This document shows positions 12,721-52,314 of a DNA stretch of 64,000 nt, one piece after another (the stretch's first letter is position 1; each line of letters opens with the position of its first letter). Where the stretch lies: assembly GCF_018977255.1 (NCBI RefSeq), contig NW_024704742.1, positions 9,240,001-9,304,000 of the forward strand, written 5' to 3'. This DNA is from Callorhinchus milii (lineage: Eukaryota). Both the position numbers and the translations under genes were made by a program. A model generated the notes under the pieces. It was not told the DNA's origin. It was given only the letters and a program-made list of their open reading frames with translations, and did not search any database.

Positions 12721-13223
12721 TTTTAAATCTTTGTAAAGGTGTTCTTGTGCAGTGATTGTATTTTATAGGTGGACATGTAAAGTTTGTAAAGTTCTTAAAG
12801 AAGGGGCAGCCCTTACATCAATATCGATTCCAATCTCAAAACTAATAACACTAATTGATGATGTTATAGAATCAGAAAGAGGATTTGGTAAGTTTGTATT
12901 ACATCTCTTAAACTAACCAAATAACCAGCAGAAAGTAAACATTCAGCCAGACAGCATTCTCAGTATTGATGGAGCTGATATACGTTTAAAGTTAAGTGAT
13001 GCTTCATTGGTCCCCATAACAACAAGGATACTTTGCATTCAGCCTCAATATTTCTCAAACCTCTTGTTGTTCATTTCAAGTTTCGCCCACAAATACACAC
13101 TTTGCAGTATATCGTATCAAGCACTTTGAGACGTCTCGACGACACGATAAGGCACTATATCAAATGCAAGGATTATTATTTATTTTAAAAGAACTTAGGG
13201 ACAACAGAACACGTTTTTAATGA

Positions 13224-13358
13224 AGCTCAAAATACTGCAGATGCTGGAAATCCAGTTCTGGCGAAGGGTCGTGGACCGAAACGTTGACTCACTTTCCTTT
13301 CTACATAGATGCTGTCTGACCTGCTGAGTGTTCCCAGCGACTTCTCTTTTTGTTTCAG
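13224..13358 (+). mobile_element. Small non-autonomous Penelope-like/retrozyme-like element with hammerhead motif, copy 1
   Basis: Flanked by a perfect 11-bp direct repeat GTTTTTAATGA (13213-13223 and 13359-13369). Homologous to 51831-52002. Confidence 0.75.
13254..13289 (+). ncRNA. Minimal type-I hammerhead ribozyme motif, degenerate
   Basis: Layout: AGTT, core CTGGCGA (canonical CTGANGA), AG, stem II GGTC-GTG-GACC, GAAAC GTT, then GACT pairing with AGTT. Confidence 0.6.
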
Positions 13359-14019
13359 GTTTTTAATGATGATCTCTTTGACGGATCATTTTTCGTATAA
13401 GAACTTTCCTTTCTTCCTTCAGTCTGTAAAATCAGGAAGGAGACAAAAATAAAATCAATCGTTTTACTTTTTGAATGAAGCAGCAATGTATTTTCAAAGG
13501 ATTTTAAATTATTCAGATGAACCGAGCATCTTATCTCTGGGCTCAGTGTATTAGGTGTCGCGTGTTATGGCAGTTTTGATGTGCAGGCTATTAATAGCTG
13601 ACTCTGTCTCAAGACAAACCAAGCAGTAAATGTGTTTCAGCTCCCAAAGGATTCCTCCACAGGAAGAAAATATAAGTAAACGTGACTAAAGTAGCCACAA
13701 AACATAAATCTAGATTTACTGTTTGATATTTCCTTTTACTGCCTTATGGGATAACAGTGCAGTCATTCAGGCTTGGTTTGAGAGGGGGGGGGATATAGGA
13801 TAGATAAGTGTTTTTAAGGCTACAAATCTGCTTTAATGATGTGGGGGGGAGGGGGAGACGATGGGAAAAGCACATTGAACCACAGCAAAAAACTAATCAT
13901 TGCTATTGAAAAAACCTCCGTAACAGGCAATGGGAGGAAAGCCGCCCTCCATAGATTCCAGAGTACTGTAGATATCTACCAATCATGTTCCAGTAGATCA
14001 ATTTTATGTGGATGACGAT

Positions 14020-21450: not shown

Positions 21451-22259
21451 TTTTGGAGGGATAATTGCCCCGGGAAAGCGATCCACCAATCGACTAACAA
21501 CTGGGTTCCTACTTACTACTTGGTAAACAGAAACATGTGGAGTAAGGAAACTTGCCCAACGTTTCGCCCTGCCAGGAATTGAACCCAGGTGTCTCGCTTG
21601 CGAGGCGAGTACTCTAACCACTGAGCTACAGGACTCCACATACCAAATGGAAGGATTATTTAATTTTTATTATCAGCTCTTTGATAACGTTGACACATGC
21701 TCATTTTTGATACTTGTGTAGAGCAGGATAAAAACAGATGATAATGTTCTTTCTTGGCTGATTGCTTTGATTGCAGTACAAAGATGGTATAAGATGACCA
21801 CAAATGCAGTCGACGAAAGTGGGGAGAGAGATGGGCTTATCAGAACATCAGAGATGCATATGGGGAGAAGAATAAGAAAAAATAATTGGACGTACTAAAC
21901 TTTTTTTAAAAAAATCTTTGTTTCTCAACTGTCTCTTGGCACCAGTGTTGTGCGGAGGAGTTAGTTCCATAGAGTTTGCATTTGCTAGTGCTTCTCCCAC
22001 ATCTACTTAGCGGAATCCATCCTGGCATACCCTGAAAAGTGCATTCCAATAAAATCTGTCGTCTTCTGTTCATCTCTGTGCTGCACGGAGTTGTGTGGTT
22101 GTATCCTTAATGCAGATGTTCTATCAAGTATTGCATTCATTGTTGTCTCTCCATTTTGATACTCTGTTTTGAGATCTGTATCTACACTGCTCTATTGATC
22201 AAGCGCTCCGGGACACTACCTCGTGTGAAGTGTGCTATAGAAGCTGTTGTTGCTGATAC

Positions 22260-22519: not shown

Positions 22520-23248
22520 TTCGCTTTCGCCCACAAAACACACAGCCACTACACTTTACAGTTTATTCTATGAAGCACTTTGAGACATCTCGAAGACATG
22601 ATAAGGTGTTATATCAAATGCAAGGATTATTATTATTGTTATTATTACCTTCCCCCTCCCCAGTCCCGTGGCTCAGCGGTTAGAGCACTTGCCTTGCAAG
22701 CGAGACACCTGGGTTCAATTCCCGGCAGGGCGAAACCTTGGGCAAGTTTCCTTACTCCACACAGAGCCTAATAATAATCCCTCCAAAAAATAAAACAATA
22801 ATAAGTTGCTCATTTTCAATCCACGACTGTTTGTGAGACAGTGCTGTGCGCAATTGGCTGCCGCGTTTTGCCCACAAATATACAGTCAATTCATTTTACA
22901 GTCTGTTCTGTGAAGGGCTTTAAGACGTCTAGAAGATGTGAAAAGCGCTATATCAAATGCAAGGATTATTATTATCATTTTCAGCTTCCATTCCCCAAGC
23001 TTGCTTGCCCAGCCAGCAGAGTGAAGAGCTTTGACTTGAGTGGCAGTATATACAGTGATAATAATAATCATAATAATAATAAATTGATCACTCAATCCAT
23101 AACTGTTTGTGGGACACTGCTGTGCCCAATTGCCACATTTCGCTCACAAAATATACGGTCAATTCACTTTACAGTATTCCGTGAAGCATTTTGAGACATC
23201 TCGGAGACGTGATAAGCCGCTATATCAAATACAAGGATTATTATTATT
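22520..23248 (+). mobile_element. Three tandem SINE pieces: 22520-22645, full short-type copy 22662-22975, and 23080-23248
   Basis: Repeated Deu/tail modules and one intact head. Confidence 0.85.
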
Positions 23249-45235: not shown

Positions 45236-48200
45236 CCAGTCGGGGAGCGGCAGCAGGACAGCGCGGGGAGGAGCCTGGGCCTACTGACCCAGGTACTTAA
45301 ACTCGACGCCGGAGCGAGTGCAGCCCCGGGGGGGGAGGGGACGGAGCGGGGGAACTGCGACGTCATAGATTAGTTTTCAGGTGAGTGCGCGCGCACAAAA
45401 AAAAAAAAAAAAAAAAAAAACCCTCCGCGCCCCCCCCCCCAGGGCTCACATCAGAGCCCACTATGGTCCTGTTGGGTTCGATGCCCCAATCTGCGGGATA
45501 ATGCCATCCACCTGACCGCTCGCTCCCGGTCCCCGCGTGCGCACTATGGCTGCCGCTTTGACCCGAGCCCCCTCACCCCCCCCCTCCCCCCCCTCCTCTC
45601 TCCCCCAAACCCTCCCCCTCTCCATCTCTCCCGCTCTCTCCTCCTCTCTCTCCGTCCCTCTCGTCTTCTATCCCCACTTGACCCTCCCACAACCTCCCTC
45701 TGTTCCAGTCTGGGAATCCTCCGCCGGGCTCACCGTGGCACTCGGCGTTGGCTGTCCAGCAGCAGCCACACCGACTGCCCCATTCCCCACCACACTCGCC
45801 ACCCACCCCGGACACAGACCCGGGGAGTCAACCTCTCCTCCCTCATCCCCATCTCCCCCACCCCTGCCTCACAACCTGGACCCCCCTCCCCTCCCACACA
45901 CCCTTCTGTCAACCGCTCCCTCCACATCGGACTGCAAAATGTCCGCTCCCTCTGCAACAAGGCCCTGGTCATCAACGATCTCATCCTTGATGAGAACGTT
46001 GATATCATGGCCTTGACAGAAACCTGGCTCACCCCAGGCGACACCTTCCCCCTCACGGAGGCCACGCCACCCGGCTACACCTCCCACCACATCCCCCGCC
46101 CCAACCGCCGTGGCGGTGGTGTTGCCCTTATCTCAAGGACACCACTTGCCCTATCCCCCTACTCCTCTGGCTCTTTCCCCTCCTTTGAGCACCTCACCCT
46201 CTCCCACCCCTCATTCCTCTCCCTTAAAATCCTCCTCCTCTACCGGCCCCCTAAAACCTCTCCCACCTTCATCTCTGACATTTCAACACTCCTCACATCT
46301 CTTTGCCTCTCCTCTGATCGCCTCATCATCCTGGGCGACTTTAACCTACACTTCACCCCCTCCTGCTCCATCTCCACAGACTTCTCTTCCCTGCTCTCCT
46401 CACTCAACCTCTCCCTACACATAAACTCCCCCACTCACAGTCACGGCCACCCACTCGATTTGGTGATCACCCGGGGCCTCAGTGTCTCGGATGTCACTAT
46501 TACCGACAAGGCCATCTCCGACCACTACTTCATCTCCTTCACCACCTCCACCCCCCTCCCCACCTCCACCAGACCCACCACCATCTTCTACCGCCCTTGG
46601 AAGAAGTTACCCCCACAATCCCTAACCGATGCCTTGGAGTCCTCTGAACTCCTCTCCCTCTGGCCTTCAACCCTCACCGACCCCTCTTCTCCTCTCTCCC
46701 TCCTCCACAATATCCTCTCCTCCACACTCGATACTCTTGCCCCCATCACTTCCCGCACTGTCTCCTACTCCCGCTCCTCCCCCTGGTACACCACCCACCT
46801 CCGCTCACTGAAATGCCAGGTGCGGGCTGCTGAGCGCACCTTTGTCAAATCCGGCTTAACGGTCCACCGACAAATCTGGCTGGACCTCCTCAAAATTTAC
46901 CGCTCCACTCTAGCCTCGGCCAAGTCGTCCTTCTACTCCAGGATAATCCTGGAGGCGAAGAACAACCCCAGGCTACTGTTTTCCACCACATCCCGACTCC
47001 TCCGTCCCCCCCGCCACCCCGCGCAGGTCATCTCCTCCAACCTTCACTGCGAGGAGATGCTGGATTTCCTTGAATCCAAGATCAAGGGAATCCGCTCCGC
47101 GGTCACTTCCCCTCCAACTTCCACCCACCACCCACCCCTTCCCTCCCACACTCCGACTCCTACCCATCCTCCCCTACACACCTTCGTACCCGTTTCCCCA
47201 CCCTCTGTCACTGAACTCATCCTATCCCTAAAACCAACCACCTGCTCCCTTGACCCCATCCCCACTCCACTCCTTATCTCCCAGCTCCATTTTCTTGCCC
47301 CACACATCACTGACATCATAAACCTGTCCCTCTCCTCTGGCTCTGTCCCCATTCCATTAAAAACTGCCATCATCACGCCCACCCTGAAAAAACCCTCCCT
47401 TGATGCGTCGCAGCTATCAAGCTACCGGCCCATCTCCAACCTCCCCTTTCTCTCCAAGGTCTTGGAAAGAGTTGTCGCCTCCCAACTGCGCTCTTTCCTC
47501 TCCACCCATTCTCTTTTTGAACCCCTTCAGTCAGGTTTCCGTGCTGCTCATAGCACAGAAACTGCCCTGGTCAAGGTCACCAATGATATCCTGACTATCT
47601 GTGACCAGGGCTCCCTCTGTCTCCTCGTCCTCCTCGACCTATCGGCAGCATTCGATACGGTCGACCACGCTATCCTACTCCACCGCTTGTCCTCCCACCT
47701 CAACCTTCAAGGCACTGTCCTTGAATGGTTTAGCTCTTACCTTTCCCACCGTCTTCACTTCGTCTCAACGAATGGCTTCTCCTCCACCCCCCGTACTGTC
47801 TCATGTGGTGTCCCTCAGGGCTCTGTCCTCGGTCCCCTCCTCTTCACCCTCTATATGCTCCCCCTCGGTGACATCATCCGCAAACATGGGGTTAACTTCC
47901 ACATGTATGCGGATGACACCCAACTCTACCTTTCCTCCTCTACTCTCAACTCCACGACCACCGATGTCCTGACAGCCTGCCTGTCCGACATCGAGTCCTG
48001 GACGAGAGACAACTTTCTTCAGCTCAACGTGCGAAAAACCGAGGCCCTCCTGATTGGCTCACGTCAGCGCCTCCGCACCTCAGGCGCTGACACCATCAGC
48101 ATCCAAGGCTGCACTCTCCACCTCTCAAAGCCAGTCAGGAACCTCGGCGTTTTGTTCGACCCTGAGCTGTCCTTTCTCCCTCACATCCGCACCACAACTG

Positions 48201-48957
48201 GCACCGCCTTCCATCACCTCCGGAATATCGCCAGATTACGGCACTACCTCACCCCTCACGCTGCTGAAACCCTGGTTCACGCCTTTGTCACCTCAAGGCT
48301 GGACTATGGGAACTCTCTCCTCGCCGGCCTTCCCGGCACCTCCCTCCACAAGCTGCAGGTCATTCAGAACTCTGCAGCTCGTGTACTGTCCCGCACCAGG
48401 CTTCGGGACCACATCACTCCCACCCTCGCTCGCCTCCACTGGCTCCCCATCCCCCAGAGGATTGATTTCAAGATCCTCATCCTCACCTACAAGGCCATTC
48501 ACGGCCTTGCTCCCTCCTACCTCTCCAACCTACTATCCCCCTACCTACCTGCCCGTACCCTCCGTTCCTCTGGCTCCGGTCTGCTCCACGTCCCCCGCCC
48601 CAACCGCCCTACTATCGGTGGTCGGGCCTTCAGCCTCTCAGCCCCGAGGCTCTGGAACTCCATCCCCCAGTGCCTTCGCCTTGCTTCCTCCCTTTCCTCC
48701 TTCAAGGCCGGTCTCAAAACCTTTCTCTTTGACCGTGCCTTCAGCTCCCCTCTCGACTCTCTTCCTCCTCCTCGCTCCCTCCCTTCCCTCCCCTCACCCT
48801 GACCATTTCCCCCCTCCTCTCTCCCTCCCTTCCCTCCCCTCACCCTGACCATTTCCCCCCTGCTCGGGTCATGACCCAACTGTGCAGCGCCTTGGGACGT
48901 CCTCCTGACGTGAAAGGCGCTCTATAAATGGAATCTTGTTGTTGTTGTTGTTGTTGT
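45236..48957 (+). mobile_element. Near full-length young L2-clade LINE, single-ORF type
   Basis: It has a CpG-rich 5' region, an uninterrupted APE-RT frame, a 3' stem-loop (GCGCCTT-GGG-ACGTC-CTCCT-GACGT-GA-AAGGCGC) and a (GTT)n tail ending near 48957. The 5' boundary is approximate; a possible 4-bp TSD GTAT lies at 45232-45235 and 48956-48959. Confidence 0.93.
46007..48802 (+). CDS. L2 ORF2-type protein: apurinic-like endonuclease plus reverse transcriptase (931 aa from the first in-frame ATG; frame open from 45374)
   Basis: APE motifs: [37 protein letters not shown] motifs: [52 protein letters not shown]2-type C-terminus: [19 protein letters not shown]. Confidence 0.96.
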
Positions 48958-50640: not shown

Positions 50641-51830
50641 TATGCATCTGCTTGTCCCACTACTTTATGTTGGTTTGCTGCTGTTCTTCATTCCTTTTTT
50701 TGGATGTCTGCTTTCAACCAGCCCCTGTATACCCCACCCACCACTTAAGAAAAAGAATGGAAAGTAACCAATGAGTCACTGTATTCAATGCCTTCCTTTC
50801 TCTATGAAAAGATTGTTCCCTTTCCTACATGGCAGAACAGGAAAAGCCAACTTTAGTTACATCAAAGCATATCCACTTAGATATCCACTTAGAGGGGAGT
50901 CAACGAACTAGCGAAACACTACCACCACATGGAAAATACTGCAGAGCTACTTTCTTTGATGAGCAATTCTCCAATGTAAGGGACAACTCCTTCCAAACAA
51001 ACAAGACTAGCACAGCACCCCTCACAAGCAGACCTCAGCCTGATGTCCAGCACCCTCAGAATCACTTGAAGAAACGTTGACATGAGATGATTGACAGCGA
51101 CCAGATACATTAATTCTTCCACATGGGCTTGTTGCTGGTTGAGCAATTGCAGTGTGTAGAATTCTGCCTCAACAGCTCAGTTGGCTGGATCAATGCACTG
51201 GGTTCAGCTAAAGTGGTGGAACAAATTTATACATGAATTAAACAAAAATGCTGTGTGCTTTTGCACTTTTTCCCAGAGAGATCGATATCAGTTGTGCCCA
51301 CTTGTGCCGAATACTCTTTGGAATTAGGTAAGCAGGGTGTGTCCATCCAGGCATTTCATTTTAAATGCAGGTAACTTTCGATTTGAAGGTAGAATATATA
51401 TGTGGAACTCTCTGTCTCGTTCGGCTATTCTTGAGCATGGTCATGGATGTGCCAAAAACCAATTTGAACACAAAAAAAGGACTGCACTTGAATTAACTAT
51501 TATCTCTTTTCATTTTGTTTTTCTATCTTTGATTGTGTTTTTCTGCTCACCAAGTGGATAGTATATTTTTCTCGATTTGTTGGAATTCAATTTCCCACAG
51601 GTCAGCTAAATAGCAAAGCTTCCTCTATCTTGTCTTTCAGTAATACAACTTAATCCCAACCTGAGTAGAAACCATCCCTAAAACAGAATGATTTTTTAAA
51701 ATCTTTATCTTCACATCACCCAGTTGTGTTAAGTTGTAAAGAGTTTTGTTTGTGTAGAGTTAACTTGACTGACTGAACCTGATTCATTTCAGGCTGATCC
51801 AGTCAATAGGGACTAGACTCCATCAACCTT

Positions 51831-52002
51831 AAAGGAAAATGCTGCAGATGCTGGAAATCTAAAATAAAAACAGAAGTTGCTGGGAACACTCGGCAGGTCA
51901 GAGTTCTGATGAAAGGTCATTAACCTGAAACCTTAACTCACTTTCATCTCTCCATAGATGCTGCCTGACCTGCTGAGTGTTCCCAGAGACACCTGTTGTT
52001 AT
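51831..52002 (+). mobile_element. Small non-autonomous Penelope-like/retrozyme-like element with hammerhead motif, copy 2
   Basis: Flanked by a perfect 12-bp direct repeat TCCATCAACCTT (51819-51830 and 52003-52014). Internal 22-bp inverted repeat at 51880-51901 and 51965-51986. Confidence 0.78.
51901..51939 (+). ncRNA. Minimal type-I hammerhead ribozyme motif, degenerate
   Basis: Layout: GAGTT, core CTGATGA, A, stem II AGGT-CATTA-ACCT, GAAAC CTT, then AACTC pairing with GAGTT. Confidence 0.65.
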
Positions 52003-52314
52003 TCCATCAACCTTGGTCTGTTGTAAAATCCAGGTCTCCGAACTGAAAGGACTGTTCGGAGTCTAATCTCCTTTATCCACTCTTCTCTTTGCTTAATATA
52101 GTCTTTTAATTATTTCAGCAGCACTTGCCCTTAAAGCAATTATTTTGTAATGCAGTGGAACAGTGGCATTTCACACTTCTCATATTTGGAACTTGTCTTT
52201 TTTAAGTAAACTATACTGATAAGCGTTAATAACAATAAATGAAAGAATCATATTTAATATTCTGCTTTTTGTATGTAACACATGAGGGATTGGAAATAAT
52301 ATTGGGATGCAAAC

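Follow-up and report, generated by a model that had tools for sequence, protein, structure and literature searches.

Here, we describe a 172-bp insert (positions 51831–52002) in a window of Callorhinchus milii DNA, the window being the whole 64,000-nucleotide stretch that was analyzed. The insert is a leftover of 3′ ends of a Penelope-like element (PLE) joined head to head, an arrangement that has already been described in other animals. In our reading, to which we give a probability of about 0.75, it was a dead-on-arrival insertion, produced by the reverse transcriptase (RT) and endonuclease of a PLE acting on the 3′ end of PLE RNA. The original prediction had proposed a non-coding, ribozyme-bearing retroelement mobilised in trans; the retroelement-derived, non-coding insert with its target-site duplication (TSD) holds up, whereas a self-standing element is less well supported, since variable junctions and the recurrence of one architecture in two subfamilies point elsewhere.

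The 12-bp TSD, TCCATCAACCTT, was correctly located: it occupies 51819–51830 and 52003–52014, the two direct repeats being identical at 12/12 positions. Between them, an inverted arm of 71 nt and a direct arm of 101 nt meet head to head at 51901/51902. The outer piece of the inverted arm (51831–51862, minus strand) is the reverse complement of a ~33-nt PLE "tail", an optional terminal extension of the 3′ end, and corresponds to the sequence found after ...TTTTTGTTT in the PLE-linked copies L064–L066; in the window copy, a fuzzy match to the tail was found at the left side but not at the right. The inner piece (51863–51901, minus strand) is the reverse complement of the PLE 3′-terminal region, with BLAST matches to PLE 3′ ends on the opposite strand, and forms the left arm of the inverted repeat. 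The right part (51902–52002, plus strand) is a direct, 5′-truncated PLE 3′ end, running from the 5′ edge of the hammerhead to an internal end point and lacking the tail. It is 88% identical, over 101–105 nt, to the module that stands behind the open reading frame (ORF) and untranslated region (UTR) of the PLE locus L063, and it diverges by 7.0% from the majority sequence of its subfamily (type a), with no sign of constraint. The 22-nt inverted repeat noticed earlier (51880–51901 and 51965–51986) is real, with 21/22 positions complementary, but its length was understated: it is the core of a 39-nt repeat (51863–51901 and 51965–52003) that is 85% complementary. The predicted RNA fold of the insert has an energy of −64.1 kcal/mol (z = −6.1), which none of 200 shuffled sequences equalled.

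By sequence comparison, the family to which the insert belongs can be traced to the 3′ end of a degenerate PLE, from which it probably derives. A PLE that encodes RT and GIY-YIG and shares this terminus, a check that had been suggested earlier, was looked for and found in the genome. Its 3′ end comprises the RT + GIY-YIG ORF, a ~300-nt UTR, a minimal hammerhead of ~38 nt, a further ~65 nt, and the optional ~33-nt tail. The module is present in 4/30 loci retrieved with a PLE protein; at L063, L064, and L066 it follows the end of the ORF (...GLNIDF.HFR*) and a common ~300-nt UTR, and these three loci place the hammerhead at the 3′ end of an RT + GIY-YIG element. The ORFs at these three loci align at 29–34% identity to an RVT_1-positive 825-aa PLE protein, and their VYCIRC..LLYIEETK.RLGDRFAEH stretch aligns to the Pfam GIY-YIG stretch of that protein, while neither Pfam GIY-YIG nor RVT_1 was called on the decayed ORF pieces of the family itself. 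Among the 138 candidates scored out of 1511, none carried an intact ORF of this PLE family, and the longest open frame measured 470 aa; a 913-aa frame at L109 proved to be a chimera, in which the PLE C-terminus is fused to an inserted LINE. At L065, coding sequence runs straight into the final ~21 nt of the UTR, and the junction ...CCCCAG/TTCTGA could be taken for a splice acceptor; a GT donor is absent at the break, which indicates a deletion rather than splicing. L065 and L066 both display, at kilobase scale, the same head-to-head layout as the insert.

Two other candidates for the parent were set aside. L031 and L032, retrieved by a genome search for Pfam GIY-YIG, belong to a different PLE family, and nothing in their 3′ flank matches the insert. 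L067, whose ~3-kb tandem arrays belong to an intact PLE family of 825 aa, likewise does not match the insert, so that on sequence grounds it is not the parent. A second, intact PLE family in the genome has the same hammerhead layout with different helices.

The motif carried by the window copy is a damaged minimal (dimer-type) hammerhead at 51902–51939 (plus strand), recognized from its boxes, its helices, and the family alignment. Every box and stem originally named is in place on the plus strand: the core CTGATGA (51906–51912), GAAAC (51927–51931, with GAAA at 51927–51930), stem I GAGTT/AACTC (51901–51905/51935–51939), and stem II AGGT/ACCT (51914–51917/51923–51926). The boxes CUGANGA and GAAA thus stand in type I order, and the 64-kb window contains a single instance of the spaced pattern CTGATGA-N14-GAAAC, where 0.03 would be expected; at least one match was present in 3/100 shuffles. 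The fifth pair of stem I is supplied by G 51901, the end of the left arm, and lies outside the family motif, in which helix I has 4 bp; in the window copy these are AGTT/AACT. An unpaired A (51913, plus strand) follows A9, and the cut would be expected after T 51934 (plus strand). Two lesions damage the motif: ACCT replaces the ACGT of the family at 51930–51933 (plus strand), so that the palindrome is broken (AACCTT), as had been suspected, and helix II, written as AGGTC/(A)ACCT, contains a C/A mismatch. No promoter-like sequence was found in the window copy, which is therefore very probably inert, and probably ordinary.

Covariance searches, also suggested earlier, were run with the Rfam hammerhead models and returned no match, either in the window at the gathering score or at the locus at E ≤ 10. 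Five family copies with intact motifs and the motif of the second PLE were likewise without a match at E ≤ 10; the blank therefore reflects the models, which are blind to this class of hammerhead, and says nothing about the window copy. Folds and cofolds of natural hammerhead segments computed with ViennaRNA predict helices I and II in intact copies; as the energy model can represent neither the catalytic fold nor a 4-bp intermolecular helix III, they carry no weight in our reading.

The insert is a member of a large dispersed family. Searching the ~0.99-Gb genome with the 172-bp sequence gave 2413 first-look candidates, of which 40 were scored; the full-length matches among them are 80–87% identical. 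Two module subfamilies, a and b, can be distinguished, the window copy belonging to a. In three samples, CTGANGA is intact in 17/30, 19/20, and 15/19 copies and GAAA in 25/30, 18/20, and 19/19, and the core, GAAA, and ACGT are jointly intact in 17/20 of the top subfamily-b copies. The family consensus retains CTGAYGA, GAAA, and ACGT, so that the finding named in advance as fatal to the hammerhead claim—a consensus without the boxes—did not materialize. The unpaired A after A9 is found in all 74 aligned copies, the window copy included. The ACGT palindrome is present in both majority sequences and in 51/75 copies; most other copies show forms expected from CpG decay (ACAT in nine, ATGT in five), and the ACCT variant of the window copy recurs in 4/75. 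ACCT could mark a sublineage, although the selection of copies by similarity to the query explains the sharing equally well. Helix I of the family is 4 bp and open, helix II is 5 bp, and helix III has no loop; the family thus supports the earlier assignment to the minimal type I hammerheads of PLEs, with a palindrome in place of a closed helix III. Pair 10.1–11.1 is A-T in 19/19 subfamily-a copies and G-C in nine, G-T in ten, and A-T in one of subfamily b; the pair is kept by two-sided change, so the helix holds and the usual G-C does not.

These features fit the minimal hammerheads (min-HHR) that have been described in the pseudo-LTRs (pLTRs) of metazoan PLEs (Cervera and de la Peña, 2014, PMC4209133), a comparison made at the level of sequence. 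Common to both are CUGANGA and GAAA, a nucleotide left unpaired between A9 and 10.1, a helix I of 4–5 bp, a loopless helix III with palindromic 15.2–16.2 (ACGU), a position beside an RT + GIY-YIG ORF, and an abundance of thousands of mostly solitary copies, with some opposite-strand pairs. A palindrome at 15.2–16.2 without a helix III loop implies action as a dimer (PMC4209133). The family differs in its helix II, which is 5 bp as against 7–8 bp in the schistosome families, and subfamily a, including the window copy, has A-U at 10.1–11.1 where G10.1-C11.1 is conserved in PLE min-HHR (PMC4209133); the palindrome found there and in the family is lost in the window copy.

Where two family members lie next to each other on opposite strands, they are arranged head to head (13/13 pairs), and this architecture is found with both module subfamilies. 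Copies differ in where the inverted arm ends on its inner side and in the filler at the junction; in subfamily a, the inverted arm is absent from 11/19 copies, and short inverted pieces anchored at the center occur in 6/19. Among 30 copies with a left (inverted) tail, none has a right tail, while 20 of the other 39 do, and no copy has a tail at both ends; in the four hairpin copies whose inverted arm is tailless (L016, L028, L071, and L073), the tail is on the direct arm (4/4). TSDs range from 9 to 16 nt, and an exact repeat of at least 11 nt flanks 18/68 copies, compared with 1/600 mismatched-pair controls. The direct arm starts within ~10 nt of the hammerhead 5′ edge in 19/19 subfamily-a and 10/20 subfamily-b copies, both samples having been drawn irrespective of upstream sequence. 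None of the 19 subfamily-a copies has the upstream UTR, and in that subfamily modules with a UTR are greatly outnumbered by short ones. The 29 best relatives of the window copy have the same overall layout; they are not independent events and could owe it to descent from hairpin-shaped source copies.

Such a pattern matches what is known of PLE integration. The available part of Craig et al. (2021, PMC8557442) describes a PLE insertion signature that consists of 5′-truncation, an adjacent inverted and 5′-truncated copy, and a 30–40-bp tail at one end only, and the window copy has head-to-head truncated arms, a tail at one end, and a TSD of a length that varies (12 bp here, 10 bp in a second copy in the window). 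The hammerhead had been described as lying inside an inverted repeat. That this is a designed structure is not supported: the left arm is a second copy of the same 3′ end, inverted and 5′-truncated, and, going by that part of the paper, a known by-product of PLE integration. In vitro, according to the available portion of the PAc study (PMC11167929), a PLE protein from a lizard cleaves each strand of the target and extends it, and reverse transcription starts at two sites that bracket the tail. The insert could have arisen in the same way: endonuclease cuts in the target, staggered by 12 bp, would yield the TSD; a first cDNA would start at the internal site, before the tail, and extend back to the hammerhead 5′ edge, giving the direct arm (51902–52002); a second, inverted cDNA would start at the outer site, and hence include the tail, and stop after 71 nt (51831–51901); and the two would meet head to head, with their junction at 51901/51902. 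In the source RNA, the hammerhead is of the PLE minimal type, which is thought to be active only when two copies pair via the ACGT palindrome.

Both-strand priming is documented by one in vitro study, at least in its available portion, and for another PLE (PMC11167929). Fold-back of a cDNA would also give head-to-head arms, and the center-anchored short inverted pieces of subfamily a fit it better. Both-strand priming has a parallel in LINE-1 5′ inversion, or twin priming, which Ostertag and Kazazian are said to have described in 2001 and in which two cDNAs primed off both strands of one staggered break reportedly leave an inverted 5′ part and a direct 3′ part within one TSD. In L1 twin priming, the inverted sequence derives from farther toward the 5′ end of the RNA, whereas both arms of the insert copy the same 3′ end and differ only in start site. 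With complex PLE insertions, as covered by the available parts of PMC8557442 and PMC11167929, the insert shares head-to-head arms, a ~33-nt tail on exactly one arm, a variable TSD, and two alternative 3′ end points ~33 nt apart, being itself a miniature (71 + 101 nt) with no ORF. A preferred 5′ end of the direct arm, here the hammerhead 5′ edge, is not mentioned in those parts of the two papers.

This preferred start sits uneasily with the dead-on-arrival reading, under which a random truncation point would be expected, and it suggests a dedicated short RNA. The copy might then belong to a self-standing, non-autonomous retroposon (a SINE-like "solo pLTR", or retrozyme-like) with its own hammerhead-led transcript, moved by PLE enzymes in trans, the hairpin being a propagating variant. 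The discrete 5′ end of the module in both subfamilies, the scarcity of UTR-bearing copies in subfamily a, and the layout common to the 29 relatives favor such an element, and a preprint (10.64898/2026.07.22.740005) derives animal retrozymes from PLE pLTRs, with monomers being common, in the part of it available. Against it, the short copies lack the upstream UTR, the sole place in which promoter-like motifs were seen by eye; junctions vary by copy, and the layout recurs in both subfamilies; tandem arrays were found neither at the locus nor among the scored matches of three genome searches (40 candidates scored in each), which contained no full tandem copies and one partial head-to-tail duplication (C3:20056522-20056671); and most hairpin copies are tailless at the 3′ end, so that a top-strand transcript would lack the terminal sequence of PLE copies. 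We consider this retroposon unlikely, since variable junctions, and one architecture that recurs in both subfamilies, speak for dead-on-arrival insertion having happened many times over rather than for one master, although some form of non-autonomous amplification may also have occurred. The available text of PMC7229834 defines non-LTR retrozymes as tandem repeats that carry canonical type I hammerheads; like them (PMC7229834; Li, Clavereau and Pollet, 2026, as far as the available text goes), the insert is short, non-coding, AT-rich, hammerhead-bearing, akin to a PLE terminus, and flanked by a TSD of more than 4 bp. Theirs are tandem, with canonical type I hammerheads and circular RNAs, whereas the insert is single and carries a minimal hammerhead. 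As the locus has no tandem repeat and the hammerhead, which lacks a closed helix III with loop 1–loop 2 contacts, is not canonical, the earlier retrozyme reading was dropped.

A strong predicted hairpin could also denote a host hairpin-RNA gene (a microRNA or siRNA precursor) exapted from a repeat, and plant miRNA precursor models do give sub-threshold matches (MIR2118 at 21.5 bits and E = 0.069, where the gathering score is 85). Scores so far under the gathering score, on both strands, are expected of any long inverted repeat, and a copy that is 7% diverged from its family without a sign of constraint makes a host gene very improbable. Less credible still is a miniature inverted-repeat transposable element (MITE), that is, a DNA transposon with hammerhead-like boxes by chance: the insert does have an inverted repeat and a TSD, but the repeat is not terminal, leaving 32 nt on the left unpartnered, TSDs of different copies measure anything between 9 and 16 bp, each arm has its homolog in the 3′ end of an element that encodes RT, and many copies (11/19 of subfamily a) miss the inverted arm altogether.

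More tentatively, and with some doubt on our part, the PLE-integration reading could be extended to the source RNA. The ~100–135 nt between the hammerhead 5′ edge and the PLE 3′ end may form a unit of transcription and retroposition in their own right, with a start set by a TATA-like box ~29 nt upstream (TTAAAA/TATAAA) and by an initiator-like sequence, CCAGTTC, at the end of the PLE 3′ UTR, and with the hammerhead at the 5′ end of the RNA; twin copies with the tail on one arm would then be in vivo footprints of both-strand priming from two start sites.

For annotation, these results mean that thousands of short hairpin-like repeats in the genome should be labelled as fragments of PLEs and not as MITEs, retrozymes, or precursors of microRNAs. 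The family also gives PLE research a large collection of natural integration products, with head-to-head twins, a tail strictly at one end, two 3′ end points, and a sharp 5′ boundary at the hammerhead. The sample could serve to test the model of two-strand priming from two start sites, which now rests on one in vitro system, and could help to ask what purpose the hammerhead serves.

Subfamily-b modules are 96–98% identical and lie at a distance of 2% from their majority sequence, which might suggest youth; the high identity is largely a top-match selection effect, as the same copies are less alike in the UTR (90.5% pairwise identity) and in coding DNA (76–91%). Two modules 3 kb apart at L068 reflect an inverted segmental duplication and not a PLE. 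Contigs of four runs, the RNA origin of which is a guess and from which starts, ends, and strand cannot be read, were compared with L070; their depth tracks module copy number, with many loose ends at module borders. The second copy in the window (copy 1, ~13224–13359, plus strand) consists of a 29-nt inverted tail followed by the direct module from the hammerhead edge, with a 10-bp TSD, TTTTTAATGA, at 13214–13223 and 13360–13369. As noted earlier, it exists and carries AACGTT where the 172-bp insert has AACCTT; its motif is also broken, with CTGGCGA as the core and one helix II base missing, and its tail is on the left only.

The 172-bp insert at 51831-52002 of the window is bracketed by a perfect 12-bp direct repeat (TCCATCAACCTT; 51819-51830 and 52003-52014) and carries on the forward strand the hammerhead boxes CTGATGA (51906-51912) and GAAAC (51927-51931), with stem I formed by GAGTT/AACTC and stem II by AGGT/ACCT; all features listed in the original prediction (TSD, 172-bp insert, boxes, stems) are present in the sequence. 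One occurrence of the box pattern was counted in the 64-kb window, versus 0.03 expected, and as RNA the insert is much more stably folded than its shuffled versions (-64.1 kcal/mol, z = -6.1). The inverted repeat, previously put at 22 bp, is real and longer than proposed, extending over 39 nt at 85% (51863-51901 vs 51965-52003). Both of its sides belong to the 3′ end of a Penelope-like element (PLE): the direct arm (51902-52002, forward strand) copies this end directly, from the 5′ edge of the hammerhead to just before a terminal extension of ~33 nt, and the inverted arm (51831-51901, reverse strand) is the same end reverse-complemented, which opens with the ~33-nt extension (51831-51862) and is 71 nt long in all. 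The ribozyme-enclosing "inverted repeat" thus consists of two 5′-truncated copies of one terminus, arranged head to head. Judged by its sequence, the insert is to be classed as a PLE fragment with a putative minimal hammerhead of the dimer type, and works like one.

The insert is one member of a dispersed family. As a query against the host genome (~0.99 Gb in 1762 contigs, rich in LINEs and tRNA-derived SINEs), it returned 2413 first-look candidates, and among the 40 that were scored are full-length copies with 80-87% identity. Alignment of 30 fetched copies (the window's own being L001, with L018 and L020 as duplicates) revealed clear element ends, with flanking DNA and flank repeats that differ in most. 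Exact flank repeats of at least 11 nt border 18 of 68 copies (L020 and L095 left out as duplicates) versus 1 of 600 mismatched upstream/downstream pairs, and TSD length ranges from 9 to 16 bp across family copies. TSDs this variable speak for retroposition and against a DNA transposon, and a MITE was rejected. The insert does not qualify as a non-LTR retrozyme either, a class marked by tandem repeats, a canonical hammerhead, and circular RNA (PMC7229834; 2026 preprint by Li, Clavereau & Pollet, 10.64898/2026.07.22.740005). No tandem repeat was found at the insert locus, and Rfam hammerhead models gave no match to the insert at gathering score or at E ≤ 10, nor any to intact family copies; a blank even in intact copies shows only that the motif is not a canonical hammerhead. 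The observation behind the original prediction was correct, and "retrozyme" over-read it. Among the papers found on hammerheads, Penelope, and Chondrichthyes, retrozymes of vertebrate genomes are treated by the 2026 preprint alone, with one cartilaginous fish sampled.

The PLE itself was recognized through its relatives. A genome-wide Pfam GIY-YIG search yielded one PLE family, unrelated to the insert, whose protein as query led to other PLE families, with the right-hand part of the insert in 4 of 30 fetched loci. In L063, L064, and L066, the end of the PLE ORF (...GLNIDF.HFR, stop) is followed by a common UTR of ~300 nt, the hammerhead motif, and ~65 nt; a further ~33 nt closes the element in L064-L066, of which L065 is a PLE copy with an internal deletion that leaves the GIY-YIG region directly next to the final ~21 nt of UTR. 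The decayed ORFs that precede the module (the stretch from the hammerhead 5′ edge to the PLE 3′ end) are 29-34% identical to an intact 825-aa protein of another PLE family in the same genome, which is RVT_1-positive and has a C-terminus above the Pfam GIY-YIG cut-off. Their segment VYCIRC..LLYIEETK.RLGDRFAEH aligns to the GIY-YIG stretch of that protein (E = 4e-4), and Pfam made no domain call on the decayed ORF pieces themselves. Among the 138 scored of 1511 coding candidates, no intact parent PLE was seen and the longest open frame is 470 aa; the single 913-aa frame is a LINE chimera. The second PLE family, with the intact 825-aa ORF (RVT_1, GIY-YIG), lies at L067 (G000:C1063:2000-11000) and on C888, C235, and C1308, in head-to-tail arrays of ~2994 bp with a CAG/CAA-rich microsatellite between ORFs. 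A third family gave about a dozen matches within ~100 kb (G000:C1:120031410-120126942; L031, L033, L038-L044, L057, and L060).

The hammerhead motif was aligned and counted in 75 copies, which include two module types (subfamilies a and b, the window copy being of type a). CTGANGA, GAAA, and ACGT are intact in 19, 18, and 20 of the top 20 subfamily-b copies (all three in 17), in 15, 19, and 10 of 19 subfamily-a copies (all three in 9), and in 17, 25, and 15 of a set of 30 biased to the window copy (all three in 10); the majority sequences of both subfamilies keep every box. Replacements of ACGT are mostly CpG-decay forms (ACAT 9, ATGT 5), and the unpaired A after A9 is found in 74 of 74 copies. 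Helix I has 4 bp and helix II 5 bp with a 3-nt loop, and positions 10.1 and 11.1 pair as G-C or G-T in subfamily b but as A-T in subfamily a, so that both sides have changed and the pairing is kept. As known here from sequence, the motif shares traits of metazoan PLE minimal hammerheads, in which helix I is short, a nucleotide separates 9 from 10.1, 15.2-16.2 is palindromic, and helix III lacks a loop, and which cleave weakly and only as dimers (PMC4209133). At the start of its ORF, the L067 family has a minimal hammerhead of its own, with the same layout, an unpaired C and GAAACGTC, and different helices. In the window copy, whose divergence from the majority sequence of subfamily a is 7.0%, the core and GAAA are intact, the palindrome reads ACCT, and helix II has a C/A mismatch; its hammerhead is very probably inactive, as had been suspected. 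The second family copy in the window (~13224-13359, forward strand), once offered as the better one, has a broken core (CTGGCGA) and a variant layout, with a 29-nt inverted tail only plus the direct module between 10-bp TSDs (TTTTTAATGA).

The layout of the insert, with head-to-head 5′-truncated copies and a tail at one end, matches published PLE insertions, for which PMC8557442 describes strong 5′-truncation, often an adjacent inverted 5′-truncated copy, and a "tail" of 30-40 bp that is often confined to one end. In a genome search with the module, adjacent opposite-strand pairs were head to head in 13 of 13 cases, two of which look like one segmental duplicate. By fuzzy matching, no copy bears the tail at both ends: none of the 30 copies with a left-arm (inverted) tail also has one on the direct arm, where it is present in 20 of the 39 remaining copies. 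Decayed tails were added by eye for L017 and L018 (left) and L069, L093, and L108 (right), and in each of the four hairpin copies whose inverted arm has no tail (L016, L028, L071, and L073), the direct arm carries one. For a lizard PLE in vitro, PMC11167929 reports that the protein cuts and extends both target strands and that reverse transcription has two start sites, set apart by the length of the tail; we infer that together these activities could provide a ready mechanism for the insert. The value of the family lies in the wealth of natural PLE integration products that it records.

A single hairpin master and repeated formation at integration were weighed on two samples chosen regardless of upstream sequence, each made up of the 20 best-ranking places of a search in which only the direct module served as query. 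Of 20 subfamily-b copies, 10 run upstream into the PLE UTR, 5 have an adjoining inverted arm of differing length, and 5 begin at the hammerhead edge beside unrelated DNA, one of them (L075) within an older PLE and with a 14-bp TSD. None of the 19 subfamily-a copies (duplicate L095 removed) continues into the UTR: 11 lack inverted sequence, 2 have long inverted arms, and 6 (L092, L097, L100, L101, L106, and L108) have only a short inverted hammerhead copy of 8-40 nt, anchored at the central junction, for which fold-back of the cDNA end fits better than a second priming from the tail. Copies differ in their junction filler and in the inner end of the inverted arm, and the hairpin occurs with both subfamilies, which favours repeated formation over one master. 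The direct arm starts at the hammerhead 5′ edge in 10/20 subfamily-b and 19/19 subfamily-a copies, a sharp preference that counts against simple "random truncation". Our favoured guess is that transcription starting at this edge would explain it: a TATA-like box lies ~29 nt upstream of the hammerhead (by eye, TTAAAA in 8 of the 10 subfamily-b copies that have the UTR, and TATAAA in L063), an initiator-like CCAGTTC sits exactly at the boundary where short copies begin (by eye; L069-L087, L063), and the regulatory region of Drosophila virilis Penelope is reported to contain an internal promoter (PMC2377424).

Subfamily-b modules are 96-98% identical, with the adjoining UTR of the same copies at 90.5% pairwise and their coding DNA at 76-91%; the high module identity for the most part reflects how the copies were selected. 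Among the scored matches of the module search, a single same-strand adjacency came up, a 47-nt partial hammerhead piece directly before a full module (G000:C3:20056522-20056671), a partial head-to-tail duplication. Four independent copies from both subfamilies (L088 and L089 direct, L008 and L022 reverse) occupy one position of one SINE, with TTCACTTTACAG or its complement as TSD, a hint that the PLE endonuclease may prefer certain targets. In the window, 11 tRNA-model matches (e.g., 21564-21635, 22662-22733, and 1173-1244) are heads of a tRNA-derived SINE; SINE-body fragments number dozens more, and the SINE inserted in L066 matched ~60 window places. A frame of 1142 aa, open throughout (45374-48802, forward strand) and apparently an intact LINE ORF2 with Exo_endo_phos and RVT_1 domains, explains why the sequence at 46-48 kb is GC-rich and strongly C-skewed.
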